A stretch of DNA of 64,000 nucleotides from Propionicimonas sp. (GCA_049841235.1 JASGEM010000030.1:23452-87451), one strand, 5' to 3'; positions 6,921-44,435 are shown, counted from the first letter of the stretch. Notes: a model not told the origin generated them from the sequence alone. Numbers and translations are program-made.

Positions 6921-7940
6921 GTGTCGGAGGATCAGAACTCACGGGTGACCCTGGCCGCGGTGGCCGCCGAGGCAGGAGTGTCGCTGGCCACCATCTCCAA
7001 GGTGCTCAACGGCCGCCCGGATGTCGCCACCGCCACCCGTGAACGGGTCGAGGCGCTGCTCTCGGCGCGTGGCTACGAGCGGCGTGGCGGGGCCAATGGT
7101 CCGCGCGGAGAACTGATCGAACTCGTCTTCCATGAGCTGCAGGACATCTGGTCGATGGAGATCATCGCCGGGGTGGAGTCGGTTGCCCAGCAGCAGGGAT
7201 TGTCGCTGGTGCTCACCGCCAGTGGCACCCGGCACTCGCCCGATCCGGCGTGGATCGAAGGGGCGATGCGCCGGCGGCCGGTGGGGATCGTCCTGGTCTT
7301 CTCCGATCTGGCACCGAAGTACCGGGCCCAGCTGGCCGCCCGCTCGATCCCGTTCGTGATCATCGATCCCGCGGGGGACCCCTCCCCGGACGTCGCGTCA
7401 GTGGGCTCGGCGAACTGGTCGGGCGGCCTGCAGGCCACTCGCCACCTGATCGACCTGGGACACCAGCGGATCGCCGCGATCACCGGACCGGACGACATGA
7501 TGTGCTCGCTGGCCAGGCTGGACGGCTACCGTTCGGCGATGAACGCCGCCGGCCTGGCGATCGATCCGGCCTGGATCCGCTACGGCGACTTCCACGTCGA
7601 GGGCGGACGGACGCGGGCGATGGAACTGCTGATGCTGCCGCAGCCCCCCACCGCGATCTTCGCGGGCAGCGATCTGCAGGCCCTCGGTGTCTATGAGGCG
7701 GCCCGCAGCCTGGGCATCCGGGTGCCGGAGGAGCTCTCGATCGTGGGCTACGACGACATCAAGGTCGCCGAGTGGGTCAGCCCACGGCTGACCACCGTCC
7801 ACCAACCGCTGGGCCGGATGGGAGCCGAGGCCGCACGGATCGTCATCGAGATGGCCAAGCATCCGCCGTCCGCCACCCCCCGGCTCGACCTCGCCACCCA
7901 CCTGGTCGTCCGCGAGAGCACGTCGCCACCCCTGCGCTGA
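6921..7940 (+). CDS. LacI family transcriptional regulator
   Basis: N-terminal HTH VTLAAVAAEAGVSLATISKVLNG followed by a periplasmic-binding-protein-like sugar-binding core. GTG start. Confidence 0.9.
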   Translation: MSEDQNSRVTLAAVAAEAGVSLATISKVLNGRPDVATATRERVEALLSARGYERRGGANGPRGELIELVFHELQDIWSMEIIAGVESVAQQQGLSLVLTASGTRHSPDPAWIEGAMRRRPVGIVLVFSDLAPKYRAQLAARSIPFVIIDPAGDPSPDVASVGSANWSGGLQATRHLIDLGHQRIAAITGPDDMMCSLARLDGYRSAMNAAGLAIDPAWIRYGDFHVEGGRTRAMELLMLPQPPTAIFAGSDLQALGVYEAARSLGIRVPEELSIVGYDDIKVAEWVSPRLTTVHQPLGRMGAEAARIVIEMAKHPPSATPRLDLATHLVVRESTSPPLR

Positions 7941-7963
7941 CCGCTCGGCAATGAGCCGTAGCC

Positions 7964-8584
7964 TCAGGCGGTAGTGACGGGTTGGCGGAGGATCGTCCGT
8001 AGCTTCTCGGGGGCGACCCTGCGAGGGTCGCTGAGGTAGATCTCGTGATGTTTGCCGGTCAGGCGAAGTCCGTGGTCGGGGATGAACTCGTGGTGCATAC
8101 GCTCCAGCACGGGTCCCTCGTCGTCGAAAGGACCGAGGTGGAGGGTCTGGACGCAGCGTCCTTCCGACAGTGGACGCAGCCGGATGTCGGCCACACGTGC
8201 CGGTGGGTCCTTGGTCACCACCTGTGCGAGAGTGGCCTCGAACAGACCGCCATCGATCCACTCGGGCACCATCAGCATCATCGTCCAATCCCAGCGGGAC
8301 TTGTCGCGCGATGCGGTGAAGGCGTCCATGTCGTCGGCCCACCACAGCCCTTCCAGCGGCGGAACCACGTAGTCACGGTCGAGTTCCCGCTTGCTGGCGA
8401 ACTTCAGCTTGTAAGCGAGTGGGTACAGCGCGGCGAGTGCGTCGGTGTAGGCGAGCGAGGTGTTGGGATCGCCGTGGCCGTCCACCATGAGGTACTGCTG
8501 GTCAGGGATTTCCACGATTTCGAACCGGCCCGGGGCCGCGCGGTAGCCGGCGAGGATCTTCTTGAAGTCGAGCTTGTCGGTCAT
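7964..8584 (-). CDS. GyrI-like small-molecule-binding domain protein
   Basis: Reads MTDKLDFKKILAGYRAAPGRFEIVEIPDQQYLMVDGHGDPN and has a GyrI-like family pattern. The start is ambiguous: ATG 8584, ATG 8593, or the ORF start at 8668. Confidence 0.75.
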   Translation of the reverse strand: MTDKLDFKKILAGYRAAPGRFEIVEIPDQQYLMVDGHGDPNTSLAYTDALAALYPLAYKLKFASKRELDRDYVVPPLEGLWWADDMDAFTASRDKSRWDWTMMLMVPEWIDGGLFEATLAQVVTKDPPARVADIRLRPLSEGRCVQTLHLGPFDDEGPVLERMHHEFIPDHGLRLTGKHHEIYLSDPRRVAPEKLRTILRQPVTTA

Positions 8585-36167: not shown

Positions 36168-37049
36168 TCAGGCCGGCGGACCCGGGACGCCGGGCACCAC
36201 CGGGCCGTGGTAGCCGGCTTCGCCGAGCGCTTCGATACTGCGCTGCAGCAGGGCCCGTTTCACACCCCACTGCTGGTTGGGCAGGGTCTTGGCGGTGATC
36301 CGCAGGGTGGTGCCGGTGGCGGTCACCGAATCCACCCCGACCACGCTCGGTGCGTCCATCAGCACGTCGGCGAACTGCTCGTCCGCGCCGACCGCGCTGG
36401 CGACGGCCTTCAGGATCTCCAGCGCCTGCGCGGCGTCCTCATCGTTGCCGATCGGCACGTCGGCGATGGCGGTGGACCAGCCCTGGGACTGGTTGCCGAC
36501 CCGCAGGATCTCGCCATTGCGGACGTACCAGACCTGGCCGTTGGCATCGCGCAGCCGCGTGACGCGGAGGCCGACCTCCTCGACGGTACCGGTGACCTGG
36601 CCGGTGTCGATGATGTCGCCGACACCGTACTGATCCTCCATGATCATGAACATGCCGGAGAGGTAGTCGCGCACCAGCGACTGGGCGCCGAAACCGAGGG
36701 CCACGCCGCCAACGCCGGCGGTGGCCAGCAGGGGGCCGAGCGGGACATCGAAGATCGCCAGGATGGTGAGGATGGTGACGGTGAACACCCCCACTGCCAC
36801 CACGCTGCGCAGCAGCGAGCCCATGGTGGCGGCGCGCTGCTCGTACCGGGCGCTGTCCGCGCCGGTCATCGCGGCGATGATGCGTCCGGCCGGGGTGGCG
36901 GCCTTTCTACGCTGGGCGCGTTCCGTCATGCTGCGGGTGATCAGGCCGATCGCGCGCACCAGCAGCCAGCGCGCCACCAGCGCGACCACGATCACCAGCA
37001 GGATCAGCAGGGCCTTGTCGAGCCAGGGGATGTCGTAGCCGAAGAGCAT
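36168..37049 (-). CDS. Mechanosensitive ion channel (MscS family)
   Basis: N-terminal TM helices followed by the MscS beta domain (GVGDIIDTGQVTGTVEEVGLRVTRLRDANGQVWYVRNGEILRVGN). Confidence 0.9.
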   Translation of the reverse strand: MLFGYDIPWLDKALLILLVIVVALVARWLLVRAIGLITRSMTERAQRRKAATPAGRIIAAMTGADSARYEQRAATMGSLLRSVVAVGVFTVTILTILAIFDVPLGPLLATAGVGGVALGFGAQSLVRDYLSGMFMIMEDQYGVGDIIDTGQVTGTVEEVGLRVTRLRDANGQVWYVRNGEILRVGNQSQGWSTAIADVPIGNDEDAAQALEILKAVASAVGADEQFADVLMDAPSVVGVDSVTATGTTLRITAKTLPNQQWGVKRALLQRSIEALGEAGYHGPVVPGVPGPPA

Positions 37050-37380
37050 GGCCCCATTCTTCCCTGCTCAGCCCGGATCCAGCGATGGCCGTGGCGGCTG
37101 GGCCAGACCGATGCCAAAGGATTCCGGGCAAGGACGAGCCGATGGAGGGCCTCGGTCGGCGAACGGCGGATGGCAAGACGATCGCGCGAGGCAGACCGCG
37201 TCGTCCGATGAGCGTGGGCCGCGGCGCCGGATCTTGCTGTCAGTCGAACTGATGCGGTTTGGCGAGCGAAGCCGGGAACGGCCGGCGCGCGATCAAGAAT
37301 CGTGTGCAGGCCCGCCAAACTCACAGTGCGTACGCCGGGAGCGGCCAGCGTGCCTGGTAGAGGGACACGCTCGATCGGGT

Positions 37381-38202
37381 TCAGGCCTTGGCGTCCTTCA
37401 GGCTGCCCTTGATCCCGCCCTTGGGAGAACCGACGCTGCAGACCAGGCGGTGATCCTTGACGTTGCGCCACAGGTCGCCGTCGGCGATGAAGTAGGTGTA
37501 CTCGTACTTCGAACTGGCGGCGTCCTTGCCGACGAACTTCTTGAACTCGGCGATGCAGACGCTGCTGATCAGCTTGGCGAGTTCCTTTTCGTCCGGTGCC
37601 TTCTTTCCCTTGATCTTCTTCTCGGCATAGACCTCGTAGTGGTGCTTCTTGGCGCAGTCGATCACCTCGAGGTCGAGCACCGGGACGTCCTGTCGTCCGG
37701 TGCATTCGCCGACCGTGGGGAAGAGGTCGGTGTCGTCCCGGGCAGTGGTGCTCAGGGTCTCCTCGGCGGAGCCGAGCAGGCAGGTGAGCTGGCGCAGCGC
37801 CGGTGTCTCCCAGGCCACTTCGTCGGGTGAGATGAACAGGGAGTTGTAGCGGCTGTGACTCGGGGTGACTCCCACGTAGGCCTCGAAGGCGGGCAGGCAG
37901 CGGTTGTTTGCGATCACCCTCATGGTCTCCATGCCGGGCAGCGTCTCGCCACCCAGTGGCACCACCTCGAACACCTCGTAGGTGTGGTCGGTGTCGCACG
38001 GAACCGTGGGGATCGGATCGCTGCTGAGCATGGCGGGCAACGGTCCGGTGCAATCGCCGACGGCGAGTTGGCGGGGCGGCGGCGTGGAGGTCGGGGCGGC
38101 CGATCCGGTGGGGGTCGGTGGGTTGACCGGGGGAGCCGCGGCAGGAGTGCAGCCGACGAGCGCGACGAACGCCGCGACGGCGATCAGGACGCGCTGGCGC
38201 AT
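37381..38202 (-). CDS. Septum-formation-family lipoprotein (duplicated Cys-rich domain)
   Basis: Lipobox in MRQRVLIAVAAFVALVGC. Two repeats of the GDC/GEC..VPC/IDC..H.YEV..C..F pattern. Confidence 0.7.
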   Translation of the reverse strand: MRQRVLIAVAAFVALVGCTPAAAPPVNPPTPTGSAAPTSTPPPRQLAVGDCTGPLPAMLSSDPIPTVPCDTDHTYEVFEVVPLGGETLPGMETMRVIANNRCLPAFEAYVGVTPSHSRYNSLFISPDEVAWETPALRQLTCLLGSAEETLSTTARDDTDLFPTVGECTGRQDVPVLDLEVIDCAKKHHYEVYAEKKIKGKKAPDEKELAKLISSVCIAEFKKFVGKDAASSKYEYTYFIADGDLWRNVKDHRLVCSVGSPKGGIKGSLKDAKA

Positions 38203-38471
38203 GGAACTCCCTTCGACGGACTCCCATGCTAACCAGTAGCCCAACCCGCCGAGACGAATCCGGCCGCTGGCTGGGCCATACCCACCAGGGTTCGGCCCCG
38301 GGACGCTGGATCGGGCGTGGATCGCACCGAATCGCGGTAGATCGGGCTCACGGCGGATGTGAGGCCGGCGAGGAACGCCGGTGGGCCGGGTCCGTCTCGC
38401 CTCTGGACGCCTGGACGATGCTGCTGAGGAGGCGATCGCTGGCGCGAAGAGGGGTGCGGTACCCTCGACGC

Positions 38472-41263: not shown

Positions 41264-42100
41264 ATGACCCGCTCCCGTCCGTTCGCCCAGGTGGATGTGT
41301 TCTCCCGCGAGCCCTACCGAGGGAATCCGGTCGCCGTGATCCTCGACGCCGAGGGCATGGACGACGAGGCGATGCAGCGGATCGCGCGCTGGACGAACCT
41401 CTCCGAGACCACCTTCGTCCTGCCGGCCACCGCCCCGGAGGCCGACTACCGGCTGCGCATCTTCACCCCAGCCGGTGAGCTGCCGTTCGCGGGGCACCCC
41501 ACCCTCGGCTCGGCTGCTGCGTGGCTCGACAATGGGGGCCGGCCGCGCGCCGAGGGTCGGATCGTGCAGGAGTGCGGAGTAGGGCTGGTCGAGTTGCGTC
41601 AGGACGGCGGACTCGCCTTCGCCGCGCCGCCACTGCTGCGCACCGGTCCGCTCGACGAGGACTACCTGGCGCGGATCATCACCGCTTGGGGGATCGCCGC
41701 GGAGCAGGTGATCGGGCACCAGTGGGTGGACAACGGTCCGGGCTGGGCGGTGATCCGGCTCGCGACCGCCGCCGAGGTGCTGGCGCTCGATCCCGACCTG
41801 TCACTCATCCCGGACGCCATGGTCGGAGCCGTCGGCGCCTACCCGGAGGGCTCGCGCCATGGGTTCGAGTTGCGTGCCTTCGCCCCGGCCGTGAACGTGC
41901 CGGAGGATCCGGTCACCGGGAGCCTGAACGCCTCGGTGGCCCAATGGCTGGCCAGCGCCGGCCAGGCTCCCGACCGCTACACCGTCTCCCAGGGAACCCG
42001 GCTCGGCCGCGCCGGTGAGATCACGATCACCGTCGAGAACGACATCGTGTGGGTCGGTGGCGCCACCACTGTCTGTTTCCGCGGCCTGGCTGTCGTCTGA
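41264..42100 (+). CDS. PhzF family isomerase
   Basis: Reads FAQVDVFSREPYRGNPVAVILDAEGMDDEAMQRIARWTNLSETTFVLP and later FAGHPTLGSA. Confidence 0.9.
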   Translation: MTRSRPFAQVDVFSREPYRGNPVAVILDAEGMDDEAMQRIARWTNLSETTFVLPATAPEADYRLRIFTPAGELPFAGHPTLGSAAAWLDNGGRPRAEGRIVQECGVGLVELRQDGGLAFAAPPLLRTGPLDEDYLARIITAWGIAAEQVIGHQWVDNGPGWAVIRLATAAEVLALDPDLSLIPDAMVGAVGAYPEGSRHGFELRAFAPAVNVPEDPVTGSLNASVAQWLASAGQAPDRYTVSQGTRLGRAGEITITVENDIVWVGGATTVCFRGLAVV

Positions 42101-42781: not shown

Positions 42782-43141
42782 CTACTCGTATCGAATCGAC
42801 CCGACGGGTGGCGGTAGTCCGTCCTGCCACACCCGCGCAAAGACGTCGGCGACCAGGGGCCAGATGCGTCGGACGCCCTCATCGACGGAGTGGATGAGAG
42901 GGGCCGCTGATCCGAGGAGGACGAAGTCGTGAGGGATCGTGCGGCCAGCCACGTCCTTCCGGTCCAGAGGATCGGGGAACCGCAGCGCCAGGCGTCCGCC
43001 GGTGAGCCTGCAGACCGTGTCCCGGTCCTCCAGACCGGCGAACGCCTGCTCGTAGCTTGCCAGCGGGTCGGCCAAGCCTCCGTCGAGAAGGAAACGGAAC
43101 CCCCAGGAACGGCCGCGTGTCGCCCAGATCAGGTTCACCAT
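42782..43141 (-). CDS. 119-aa protein of unknown function, translationally coupled to the GTPase-like gene
   Basis: Its ATG at 43141 overlaps the upstream stop by 7 nt (ATGGTGA). It reads MVNLIWATRGRSWGFRFLLDGGLADPLASYEQAF. No motif recognised. Confidence 0.6.
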   Translation of the reverse strand: MVNLIWATRGRSWGFRFLLDGGLADPLASYEQAFAGLEDRDTVCRLTGGRLALRFPDPLDRKDVAGRTIPHDFVLLGSAAPLIHSVDEGVRRIWPLVADVFARVWQDGLPPPVGSIRYE

Positions 43142-44304
43142 GGGTTCTTGACGAGGAGATGGTTCGCCACACCCTCATCGAGGTCGAGCCGGAGCTTGGT
43201 GAGGATGGCCGTGAGGTAGTCCTTGTCTTGCAGCGCCTGCTGGTGAATCTCCGCCAGCTTCGACCTTCCGAGCTGGACGAGCTCCGCCAGTGCCGGCATC
43301 GCCAGCGGACCGAGGATGCGTCCGACCTTCGGTACCTTGACAAGCAATTTCGTGGTCGCTTTCGCACCTACGCCCGTCAGCACCGTCGCCAGCACTTCCG
43401 CGTGGTCGACCAGTCCGCCCAGCACCTTGAGCGGGATGTTGAACGTGTCGGCCCATTGCGCGACTCGCTCCAACGGGAGCATGGAGGCCACCGGCAGGAT
43501 GAGGTCGACGCCCACTCGCTCGCTGACCGTGATCCTGTCGGGCTCGAACTTCGCCGAGGACAGGAGGAGGAAGTCTTCACCGAGCGAGAGTGCCTCGGGC
43601 ACCTGGACGAACCCCTTGAGCGTCTCCTGCAGTGCTGCGACATCGCCGGCTGCCTTCTCCACCACGAGATCCTGAAACCCCTGGACGTCAAGACCGGGGT
43701 GCAGATCGGCTTTGGAGAGCGCCAGAACCCAGATGCGCGGGAACTCGGCAAGGGGCTCGCCGTCAGTCAGGATGTCGTCCTTGAGCCGCTCCAGCCCGTC
43801 CCCGATGCTACTGAGCAGGTACTTGAGGTACTTCTCCTCCTCGCCTACGTGATCGATCAGCTTCTGACCGTCGATCAGGATGAGGGCGACGTCGGACTTC
43901 ATCAGTTTCGTGAAGGTCGCGACCCGCCGCGCGGCTTCCTGCTCGCTGCTGGGATCCTCCTCGAACCACTCACCCGGGTAGTCATGCCAGACCAGCCGCA
44001 GCGCGCTGAACGGCTGCCCCTTGACGCTCTTGGTGCCGTCCCCGCTGTTCGGCTTCACAGTGAAGGCATAGCTGGTCGGCTTGAACGTGGTGGGTCGGGG
44101 AGCCTGTGACGCGTTCTTCATCCTGAGGTAGTTCTGGTGCAGCCGGTTGCCCTGCCCCGTATCTGCGGCAATCAGGCTATACAGACTCTTGCTGCGGAAG
44201 GAGGGCTCCCGGGTGGCGCCGTAGAAGGACGAGAGGAGTACGGTCTTGCCGCTGCCGCTGGCACCGAACACAGCCAGGTTCTGTTCTCTCACCTTCATGG
44301 CCAT
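43135..44304 (-). CDS. Septin-like (TRAFAC-class) P-loop GTPase-like protein with a novel helical C-terminal half
   Basis: Motif positions are in 392-aa ORF numbering: Walker A GASGSGKT (aa 17-24), VWHDYPGE (DxxG, aa 111-114) and LALSKAD (septin-type xKxD G4, aa 200-203). The start is probably ATG 44304, after AGGTGG; alternatives are GTG 44313 and ATG 44298. Confidence 0.75.
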   Translation of the reverse strand: MAMKVREQNLAVFGASGSGKTVLLSSFYGATREPSFRSKSLYSLIAADTGQGNRLHQNYLRMKNASQAPRPTTFKPTSYAFTVKPNSGDGTKSVKGQPFSALRLVWHDYPGEWFEEDPSSEQEAARRVATFTKLMKSDVALILIDGQKLIDHVGEEEKYLKYLLSSIGDGLERLKDDILTDGEPLAEFPRIWVLALSKADLHPGLDVQGFQDLVVEKAAGDVAALQETLKGFVQVPEALSLGEDFLLLSSAKFEPDRITVSERVGVDLILPVASMLPLERVAQWADTFNIPLKVLGGLVDHAEVLATVLTGVGAKATTKLLVKVPKVGRILGPLAMPALAELVQLGRSKLAEIHQQALQDKDYLTAILTKLRLDLDEGVANHLLVKNPW

Positions 44305-44435
44305 GCGCGCCACCTGAGCTTTCGTACCGTCCGGCTCATATCGGTCTTCCTTCTTTGTCGACGCGTCGGTGCGGCATTTGAGGTTGGAACGTGAGGAAAC
44401 GGAGGAGATGGTCTCCGCCAGCCCCCGAATGGCGA

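Follow-up and report, generated by a model that had tools for sequence, protein, structure and literature searches.

A mobile two-gene module of a predicted YcjX/DO-GTPase-class GTPase and a small obligate partner in Propionicimonas sp.

A 64,000-nucleotide (nt) stretch of DNA from Propionicimonas sp. (GCA_049841235.1, JASGEM010000030.1:23452-87451), here called the window, encodes on its minus strand a predicted guanosine triphosphatase (GTPase) and, directly behind it, a protein of 119 amino acids (aa), here called the partner. In an earlier note, made from the sequence alone, the GTPase had been described as septin-like and as joined to a helical C-terminal half of unrecognisable nature. 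In our reading the two genes form a self-contained, horizontally mobile two-gene module. The features of this cassette, and of the genes that flank it, are listed in Table 1.

Results

The open reading frame (ORF) of the GTPase can be opened at two codons, an ATG at 44304 and a GTG at 44313, the latter giving a product of 392 aa (43135..44313, minus strand). Because AGGTGG lies 5 nt upstream of the ATG, and because homologues are 388-389 aa long, the ATG is probably the true start. The span of 43135-44304 given in the earlier note fits this likelier start and implies 389 aa, whereas its residue numbers use the GTG start. For ease of comparison with that note, GTPase residues are numbered here throughout from the GTG (392-aa numbering).

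Table 1. Coordinates of the cassette, its motifs and its flanking genes, counted from the first nucleotide of the window
Feature	Position	Strand	Basis and remarks
GTPase gene	43135..44304	-	389 aa from ATG 44304; Pfam PF19993; homologues; AlphaFold2 model
Shine-Dalgarno-like AGGTGG	44310..44315	-	Ends 5 nt upstream of ATG 44304; read from sequence, putative function
G1 / P-loop GASGSGKT, aa 17-24	44242..44265	-	G17, G20, G22, K23 and T24 at least 90% conserved (41 homologues)
Candidate switch-I / G2 P72-R-P-T75-T76	44086..44100	-	Putative assignment; profile alignment to YcjX
G3 / Walker B VWHDYPGE, aa 108-115	43969..43992	-	W109, H110, D111, Y112, P113 and G114 invariant (41 homologues)
G4 LALSKAD, aa 197-203	43705..43725	-	NKxD-type guanine-specificity motif; A198, L199, K201, A202 and D203 invariant (41 homologues)
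G5 LSSAKF, aa 251-256	43546..43563	-	SAK-type; L251, S252, S253, A254 and F256 invariant; after modelled strand 243-250
C-terminal helical extension, aa 292-392	43138..43440	-	AlphaFold2 helices; conservation; hydropathy
Partner gene, 119 aa	42782..43141	-	ATG overlaps GTPase stop (ATGGTGA); directly downstream in homologous loci
Partner beta1-beta2 hairpin W6-A-T8-R9-G10-R-S-W13-G-F-R-F-L-L19	43085..43126	-	Family conservation
Partner loop A52-L-R-F-P-D57-P-L-D-R61-K-D63-V-A-G-R67-T-I-P-H71	42929..42988	-	D57, D63, R67 and H71 invariant
XRE-family helix-turn-helix gene, 84 aa	44488..44742	+	Divergent neighbour, not conserved core; Pfam HTH_3 3e-15; PADLOC 'Control_protein' 5e-19
Flanking lipoprotein, 127 aa	42316-42699	-	Signal peptide and Cys; sequence

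The conservation of the GTPase was followed in a close set of 41 homologues (59-89% identity) and a distant set of 27 (about 30% identity to the window protein). G1, G3 and G4 were all found at the positions given in the earlier note and are strongly conserved in the close set; these three had been read correctly, and a canonical G5, LSSAKF, had been overlooked. The P-loop GASGSGKT is kept in both sets, and D111-Y-P-G114, the DxxG of G3, is invariant in both. The residue that follows, E115, occupies the position of Gln61 in Ras. Most close homologues keep the glutamate, some have Q or G, and distant relatives mostly have G. In G4 the lysine and the aspartate are invariant down to about 30% identity, with S, T or N in the first position, and at G5 the distant relatives keep 'LLLSS'. 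In the candidate G2 region, P72 is invariant and T75 is frequent, being replaced by N, D or S in some homologues; the region pairs with 'FPxxT' of distant relatives and with 'WPEST' of YcjX, the latter in a weak alignment.

The family has more than 1,800 members at an expectation value (E) <= 1e-3 and is compact, with 330 clusters at the same threshold in an exhaustive HMMER scan of 1.84 billion representative proteins. Its members are named 'TRAFAC clade GTPase domain-containing protein' or 'ATP/GTP-binding protein'. In Pfam the window protein matched DO-GTPase2 (PF19993) with 35.7 bits against a cut-off of 27 (E 9.6e-9), a partial match in which aa 13-181 correspond to model positions 3-156 of 226. 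Homologues have PF19993 among their precomputed annotations, and distant clusters at about 30% identity match both DO-GTPase2 and DO-GTPase1, weakly. The ABC, AAA and SMC models matched the P-loop only and stayed below their cut-offs. DUF463 (PF04317, YcjX-like) reached 12.0 bits, below its cut-off of 25, and 21.7 bits in one distant relative. NCBIfam gave nothing meaningful for the GTPase, and no defence-system model in PADLOC-DB v2.0 was matched by either protein, the best score for the GTPase being that of mad3 (E 0.005) through the P-loop region.

We then compared structures. The GTPase was modelled with AlphaFold2 (AF2) on the 41-sequence alignment (predicted local distance difference test, pLDDT, 76; predicted TM-score, pTM, 0.80). 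Its top 50 Foldseek matches in the PDB, all with E <= 0.001, were almost all TRAFAC GTPases, including eEF2, YcjX, MglA, atlastin, mitofusin, EF1A, Ras/Rab and GBP, at low TM-scores of 0.2-0.37. YcjX had the best query TM-score among the matches listed (0.34-0.37, E 6e-5). It also ranked first, with a marginal E of 0.026, when a profile of 28 diverse family members was run against PDB sequences, the aligned parts being the P-loop and 'WPesT ... DYPGEW'; beyond this marginal match, PDB sequence searches with both proteins of the cassette returned nothing significant. Because the PF19993 cut-off was passed, YcjX came first by fold and by sequence profile, and DYPGEW is common to both, we assign the window protein, on its sequence and model, to the guanine-type TRAFAC GTPases of the YcjX/DO-GTPase class. 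In the literature, a DO-GTPase-family protein of some gammaproteobacterial psp operons has been given a predicted role in membrane stress (10.1101/2020.09.24.301986), which also speaks for this placement; its context fits ycjX, although the gene is not named in the passage. The earlier note was right in choosing a TRAFAC-type GTPase over an ABC or AAA+ protein: PF19993 lies over its cut-off and ABC and AAA lie below theirs, the structural matches are GTPases, and G1, G3, G4 and G5 are canonical. The profile search and the AF2/Foldseek comparison, which it had proposed as a check, led to a GTPase family and not to a non-GTPase P-loop family.

In the AF2 model, aa 9 to about 265 form the strands and helices of the G domain, among them the beta strands 243-250, 254-257 and 260-263. 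Next comes a core-like helix (aa 269-291), and distant relatives align through about aa 290. For these two reasons the unexplained tail measures about 100 aa. The model places the GTPase core at about aa 9-291 and a family-specific helical extension at about aa 292-392. The earlier note had counted about aa 230-392 as long amphipathic helices, yet residues 230-265, with their strands, and the core-like helix lie outside the helical tail. Its remark that this half has no effector motif stands, and its remark that there is no transmembrane motif is weakly borne out: the most hydrophobic 19-mers (aa 267-285, 307-325 and 330-348) have Kyte-Doolittle means of 1.4-1.5, below the usual transmembrane threshold of 1.6. 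The tail consists of short helices of 4-23 residues each and is less conserved than the core (column conservation 0.64 vs about 0.8). Within it lies a moderately hydrophobic, low-confidence stretch at about aa 297-348, VLGGLVDHAEVLATVLTGV ... KVPKVGRILGPLAMPALAELV, with a hydropathy of 1.25-1.5 and with pLDDT below 50 at aa 305-345. Distant GTPases are about 20-25 aa shorter in the tail, the actinobacterial extra lying at 'KVPKVG..ILGPLAMPALAELV'.

Variation at the GTPase gene was seen in metagenomes. A contig from a sludge metagenome (run X1) has a 1-nt insertion at 43912, which would shift the frame near codon 134, and in run X4 the assembly splits into several variant contigs over window positions 43228-43600 (aa ~238-362). 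These two observations indicate strain-level diversity in the GTPase tail and, possibly, pseudogenisation in some strains.

The pairing of the two genes was then examined in two sets of loci. The actinobacterial set comprises 81 loci, 80 from species-representative genomes (Actinomycetota, or so labelled) and one duplicate locus; the distant set comprises 70 metagenomic loci of GTPase relatives about 30% identical to the window protein, with a guanine plus cytosine (GC) content of 36-71%. The partner lies directly downstream of the GTPase gene in 80 of the 81 actinobacterial loci, and also in both extra loci taken from plasmid and 'phage' collections. At the single exception (L017), a DDE transposase-like ORF (7406-8158) directly follows the GTPase gene, which suggests that the partner was lost there through insertion of an insertion sequence (IS), since this ORF fills the partner site. 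A profile of the partner found its ORF directly downstream in 57 of the 70 distant loci. Of the 13 exceptions, 12 stop at the GTPase match or shortly after it; in the other (L153) there is sequence downstream, but no ORF like the partner. The pairwise identities of one protein correlate with those of the other (r=0.77, 79 loci), as is expected of a unit that is inherited and transferred together. The partner is often overlooked by gene callers, for example in Pengzhenrongella. Around the cassette, no third gene was common to more than 7 of 80 loci, and no promoter, terminator or operator repeats were found. The partner is thus obligate and, to judge from the overlapping codons, translationally coupled to the GTPase gene. 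The earlier note had named it as the partner and had undervalued it, for this gene is the key to the system.

Fusions of the two proteins were considered as evidence of interaction and were rejected. Four candidates (P0030, P0037, P0046 and P0075) are N-terminal over-extensions. A fifth, the metagenomic P0245 (514 aa), is not a true fusion: its GTPase is frameshifted after about aa 310 and runs through a low-complexity stretch before the partner frame begins.

The partner itself had no match in Pfam (E <= 1), NCBIfam or PADLOC. Across its whole family, which is otherwise only 20-30% identical, G10, D57, D63, R67 and H71 are invariant, and T8, R9, W13 and F34 are conserved at 90% or more. The AF2 model (pLDDT 89, pTM 0.84) has, by DSSP, the elements E4-9, E15-20, H26-34, E43-47, E50-56, E70-75, H77-82 and H86-107, that is, beta-beta-alpha-beta-beta-beta-alpha-alpha. 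Longin domains have the element order beta1-beta2-alpha1-beta3-beta4-beta5-alpha2-alpha3. The best-ranked PDB matches in Foldseek were mostly longin or roadblock domains of GTPase regulators, and the matches included GATOR1 Nprl2/3, yeast SEAC, FLCN-FNIP2, Ragulator, Lokiarchaeal Roadblock-Longin, Sec22b and VAMP7. We read the modelled topology as longin-like, a statistically weak assignment. By the usual order of the longin sheet, the conserved residues of the hairpin and of the beta4-beta5 loop would share one end of the sheet. [quoted passage not shown]

Distant partners are longer, at about 170-380 aa, most of them about 200-220. In a subset of 21 that was checked for domains and transmembrane segments, 15 are tail-anchored by a strongly hydrophobic C-terminal transmembrane helix (Kyte-Doolittle 2.1-3.0). 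Hydrophobic segments are absent from the actinobacterial partner (maximum 1.36), and it is possible, from the sequences compared, that membrane contact has shifted in actinobacteria from the partner to the GTPase tail. One distant partner (L137 1614-2726) runs on past the transmembrane helix into an FGE-sulfatase (SUMF1-like) domain (Pfam E 7e-17), the only Pfam match among the 21, and the FGE-sulfatase (FGS) domain is counted among the effector or sensor domains of conflict systems by Kaur et al. 2020 (PMC7159879). Three further long partners of 367-379 aa (L118 1458-2597, L121 1376-2506 and L084 6096-7202) have C-terminal extensions without a Pfam match, which may represent additional variable modules. 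A profile run against 5.8 billion proteins returned only 'hypothetical proteins', mostly of about 200-220 aa and without a Pfam domain.

When the partner model was compared with predicted viral structures, there was one strong match, a protein of Arthrobacter phage Nightmare (E 9e-10, TM-score 0.82, 38% identity). By tblastn this is gp8 of Nightmare (L157 5234-5845), with a counterpart in Tokki (L158 5225-5839), both phages of the genus Gordonvirus. The gp8 gene is placed between those of the terminase and the portal; in Tokki its annotation reads 'membrane protein'. Its product of about 203 aa has an N-terminal hydrophobic (transmembrane) segment followed by the partner-like domain, in which T8, R9, D57, P58, R61, D63, R67, H71 and W94 are retained and W6 and W13 are lost. 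The gp8 N-terminus also bears the motif 'HYGVKGMKWGRRK'. The partner matches phrog_38171 because of these gp8 homologues in phages. No GTPase homologue was found in Nightmare or Tokki, nor in the phage collection apart from one mislabelled contig. The latter, MT835574 (L083, 'Bacteriophage sp.' from human faeces), was rejected as a cassette-bearing phage: its GC content of 70-77% and its SdhA-like and DUF1846 housekeeping genes suggest a piece of actinobacterial chromosome that was wrongly labelled as phage. Just upstream of the cassette in this record is a NERD-UvrD helicase.

The cassette is sparsely distributed. A pattern search found the actinobacterial type in about 298 of 185,579 species genomes. 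The cassette is lower in GC than its flanks in 77 of 80 loci (medians 0.632 vs 0.671), as in the window (0.64 vs 0.69), and its neighbourhoods are not conserved even inside Kribbella. Among the immediate neighbours, 133 genes at 70 loci, a minority belong to defence or to mobile genetic elements (MGEs): GmrSD in 3, IS110 transposases in 3 and TrwC relaxases in 2, besides MADS mad1/mad3, a type IV restriction enzyme and SspE-like proteins. On a 108-kb plasmid of Curtobacterium flaccumfaciens the cassette has Tn7-like genes (TniQ, an AAA ATPase and an rve-domain protein) on one side, and a Type ISP restriction-modification enzyme, a DUF6998 protein and a SAVED-domain protein on the other. Kitasatospora arboriphila carries two copies of the cassette. 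The surroundings of one distant copy are MGE-like and include a group II intron reverse transcriptase, and other distant copies lie among housekeeping genes.

Discussion

Our preferred reading, to which we give an even chance, is that the cassette encodes a YcjX/DO-GTPase switch with a regulatory partner, a package that would act at the membrane as an accessory conflict or stress switch and would need no separate enzymatic effector. The partner would be a regulator or adaptor of the nucleotide cycle of the GTPase, with which it would interact physically. The face that carries the T-R-G hairpin and the D-x5-D-x3-R-x3-H loop may dock at the GTPase's switch and nucleotide region after the manner of MglB, GATOR1 or FLCN-type regulators, and the partner, in a GAP-like role, possibly gives an arginine. 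The variability of E115, which is often Gly in distant relatives, fits such catalysis assisted in trans. In known systems, the longin domains of Nprl2 and FLCN provide the arginine finger.

The site of action would be the cytoplasmic membrane, as is suggested by the tail-anchored partner of most non-actinobacterial versions. In actinobacteria, where the partner is predicted to be soluble, an extra hydrophobic helical insert in the GTPase tail may take the place of the anchor. The output could then be that the helical tail, or the complex as a whole, acts on the membrane in a manner dependent on the GTP state. As to its role, an accessory conflict or stress switch could serve, for example, in anti-phage or anti-MGE defence.

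The likeness to MglA-MglB, Rag-Ragulator, GATOR1 (Nprl2/3) and FLCN-FNIP lies in a GTPase coupled with a small alpha/beta sandwich partner of longin element order; MglA is among the top fold matches of the GTPase, and the invariant arginines of the partner would lie on one face of it. Against this likeness stand a weak fold similarity (E >= 0.026), the lack of any similarity in sequence, and a GAP or GEF role that is only predicted for the partner. The window GTPase, a member of another family, is also about double a Ras-like G domain in size.

Several results weigh against our preferred reading. The Foldseek scores of the partner are non-significant (E 0.026-0.3, probability 0.3-0.85, TM-score 0.35-0.48), PAS sensor domains are listed as well, at lower rank, and a sequence profile of the partner matched nothing in the PDB. 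No segment of the actinobacterial GTPase tail exceeds the transmembrane threshold. The immediate neighbours differ from locus to locus, ordinary metabolic or transport genes making up most of them; no defence family occurs in more than 3 of the 133, a modest and non-recurrent signal, and there are no defence genes among the window's own neighbours. The cassette was not found in IMG/VR viral contigs by pattern search. The sole 'RNA' run gave flat, DNA-like contigs of up to 274 kb and no transcript information. Finally, in one high-GC metagenomic lineage (L092-L107), the pair stands in stable synteny with an FHA-GGDEF protein and a 920-aa PMT_2 membrane glycosyltransferase (for example L099 707-4491), and therefore looks vertically inherited there, in the manner of a housekeeping gene. 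This synteny hints that in that lineage the pair is linked to envelope or cyclic di-GMP signalling.

The same synteny speaks for the best of the alternatives, which we nevertheless hold to be somewhat unlikely: a housekeeping-type module for envelope or membrane stress, like YcjX-YcjF, with no conflict role and no need of an effector. YcjX (DUF463; PDB 6NZ4, 6NZ5 and 6NZ6) is the nearest solved relative, being the best whole-length structural match and the best PDB profile match, and it shares with the window GTPase the P-loop context, the DYPGEW of G3, 'WPesT' before strand 2 and helical elements. Both GTPases are encoded beside a membrane-associated partner, and most distant partners of the present family bear transmembrane anchors. 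The window has an MscS channel and a septum-formation lipoprotein among its genes, and neighbours elsewhere are mostly ordinary. Two papers report that stress and phiX174 infection induce the YcjX-YcjF pair (PMC8125068, PMC3041696).

However, the similarity to YcjX is marginal (DUF463 12 bits vs 25; Foldseek TM-score about 0.36), and YcjX-YcjF is a conserved chromosomal pair of gammaproteobacteria, whereas the window cassette is mobile and thinly distributed. YcjF, a polytopic membrane protein, is not known to be related to the 119-aa partner. A housekeeping role also sits poorly with the sparse distribution, with neighbourhoods that vary even within one genus, with the low GC of the cassette relative to its flanks, and with the Tn7-like plasmid cargo copy beside restriction and SAVED genes. 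The presence of two copies in one genome, the partner lost to an IS insertion and the orphan partner homologue in phages point the same way.

Unlikely, in our estimate, is a stronger form of the preferred reading, that the cassette is a minimal immune module in which the longin-like partner checks or triggers the GTPase at the membrane and the tail is the effector, acting by membrane perturbation or abortive infection. Gordonvirus gp8 would then be a counter-mimic. The orphan phage protein, as a hypothesis drawn from its sequence, might act as a decoy for the host module or inhibit it.

We consider it quite doubtful that the cassette is a toxin/regulator pair, in which the small protein would be the active component, an enzyme or a ligand sensor working through D57, D63, R67 and H71, and the GTPase would be its regulator, chaperone or antitoxin-like partner. 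Of the five residues that are invariant in so divergent a family, four are polar or charged; their loop is kept in the phage homologues while the hairpin tryptophans are lost; ligand-binding sensor domains of the PAS type appear in the Foldseek list; and the mobile, translationally coupled layout resembles that of toxin-antitoxin modules. Yet the partner matched no known catalytic fold or motif, in most lineages a simple transmembrane anchor tethers the domain to the membrane, and an invariant arginine with an acidic patch is equally expected of a surface that docks on a GTPase.

Very improbable is a canonical DO-GTPase/GAP1 conflict system of the kind described by Kaur et al. 2020, with its other components encoded elsewhere or missed. 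Such systems combine one GTPase or two, in which zinc ribbons are frequent, with a GAP1 of three domains, GASH or FNIII, and variable effectors (PMC7159879). PF19993 was passed over its cut-off, and this family was defined within such systems (PMC7159879); the window cassette shares with them the Pfam family (PF19993; kin PF19975), the TRAFAC clade and, in the window protein, the Walker-B glutamate of DYPGE. A partner gene immediately downstream, frequent membrane association, one FGE-sulfatase (FGS) link and a patchy, mobile distribution are further points in common. Against this, the cassette has one GTPase gene instead of a paralogous pair, and N-terminal zinc ribbons are absent, the P-loop starting at aa 17 without a Cys-rich N-terminus. 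In place of a three-domain GAP1 there is an undescribed partner domain of 119 aa (about 170-380 aa in distant loci). No GAP1-N, GAP1-M, GAP1-C, GASH, GAAD or FNIII was detected in the partner, in the 21 distant partners or in the window neighbours, nor does the cassette have an EAD or a variable enzymatic effector. No third gene is conserved over the 80 loci, the PF19993 match is partial, and the Walker-B glutamate is not conserved in the wider family.

The septin or paraseptin identity proposed in the earlier note is not supported, and a septin-like GTPase whose C-terminal helices serve as a coiled coil or filament-forming element is likewise very improbable. Septins are TRAFAC P-loop GTPases with the G4 motif AKAD. 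The (A/S)KxD form of the window G4, SKAD, resembles this motif over four residues, and the C-terminal region is helical, but no septin was among the 50 Foldseek matches listed, septin-7 reached only E ~1 over 21 P-loop residues in the PDB profile search, Pfam calls DO-GTPase2, the DYPGEW context of G3 is common to YcjX and not to septins, and the tail of about 100 aa, broken into short and partly low-confidence helices, is not a long coiled coil. Nothing in the alignment resembled a septin unique element, a polybasic region or filament interfaces. The window gene, moreover, has an obligate small partner.

The GTPase domain is already catalogued, in Pfam as DO-GTPase2 and at NCBI as 'TRAFAC clade GTPase domain-containing protein'. 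Full-text searches of the literature found no description of the minimal pair or of the partner domain, and the minimal pair is also absent from PMC7159879. Three things are apparently new in the literature searched: a strict two-gene module with a partner domain that lacks a Pfam, NCBIfam or PADLOC model, the longin-like topology (in the model) and tail anchor of the partner in most lineages, and the orphan copy of the partner domain in real actinophages. If the partner is a regulator of the GAP or GEF type, it would extend the pairing of GTPases with longin or roadblock domains, as in MglA-MglB and in eukaryotic Rag and Rab, to a different bacterial GTPase family, one that is mobile, and would give an experimental handle on the uncharacterised YcjX/DO-GTPase class. 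If the immune reading is true, a bacterial GTPase would be paired with a longin-type regulator in immunity, together with a natural phage inhibitor. At about 1.5 kb, the cassette is small and therefore easy to test.

Additional observations

Two genes next to the cassette were considered as further components and rejected. The upstream helix-turn-helix gene, whose PADLOC match is to 'control protein' models of restriction-modification systems, is shared by no loci other than the two closest (L002 and L003), and the downstream lipoprotein is conserved only once, weakly. Both genes fall below the cut-off of 0.78 for GC at third codon positions (GC3), at or above which the other genes of the window were called.

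The other neighbours in the window encode the MscS channel, the septum-formation lipoprotein, a sigma-like protein, GNAT, PhzF, a transketolase-like E1 and esterases. The MscS-type channel and the 'Septum_form' lipoprotein (36168-38244) are some 5-8 kb away from the cassette and are ordinary envelope genes that do not accompany it in other genomes. In the window (41264-42100), as in the unrelated gammaproteobacterium Agitococcus lubricus (L154 4796-5581), a PhzF-family gene is found within about 1 kb of the cassette, and a malic enzyme gene recurs near four distant copies (L126, L129, L141 and L154). Both recurrences may be coincidence. The source is an uncultured actinobacterium of sludge, wastewater and soil metagenomes, nearest to Propionibacteriaceae-like metagenome-assembled genomes.

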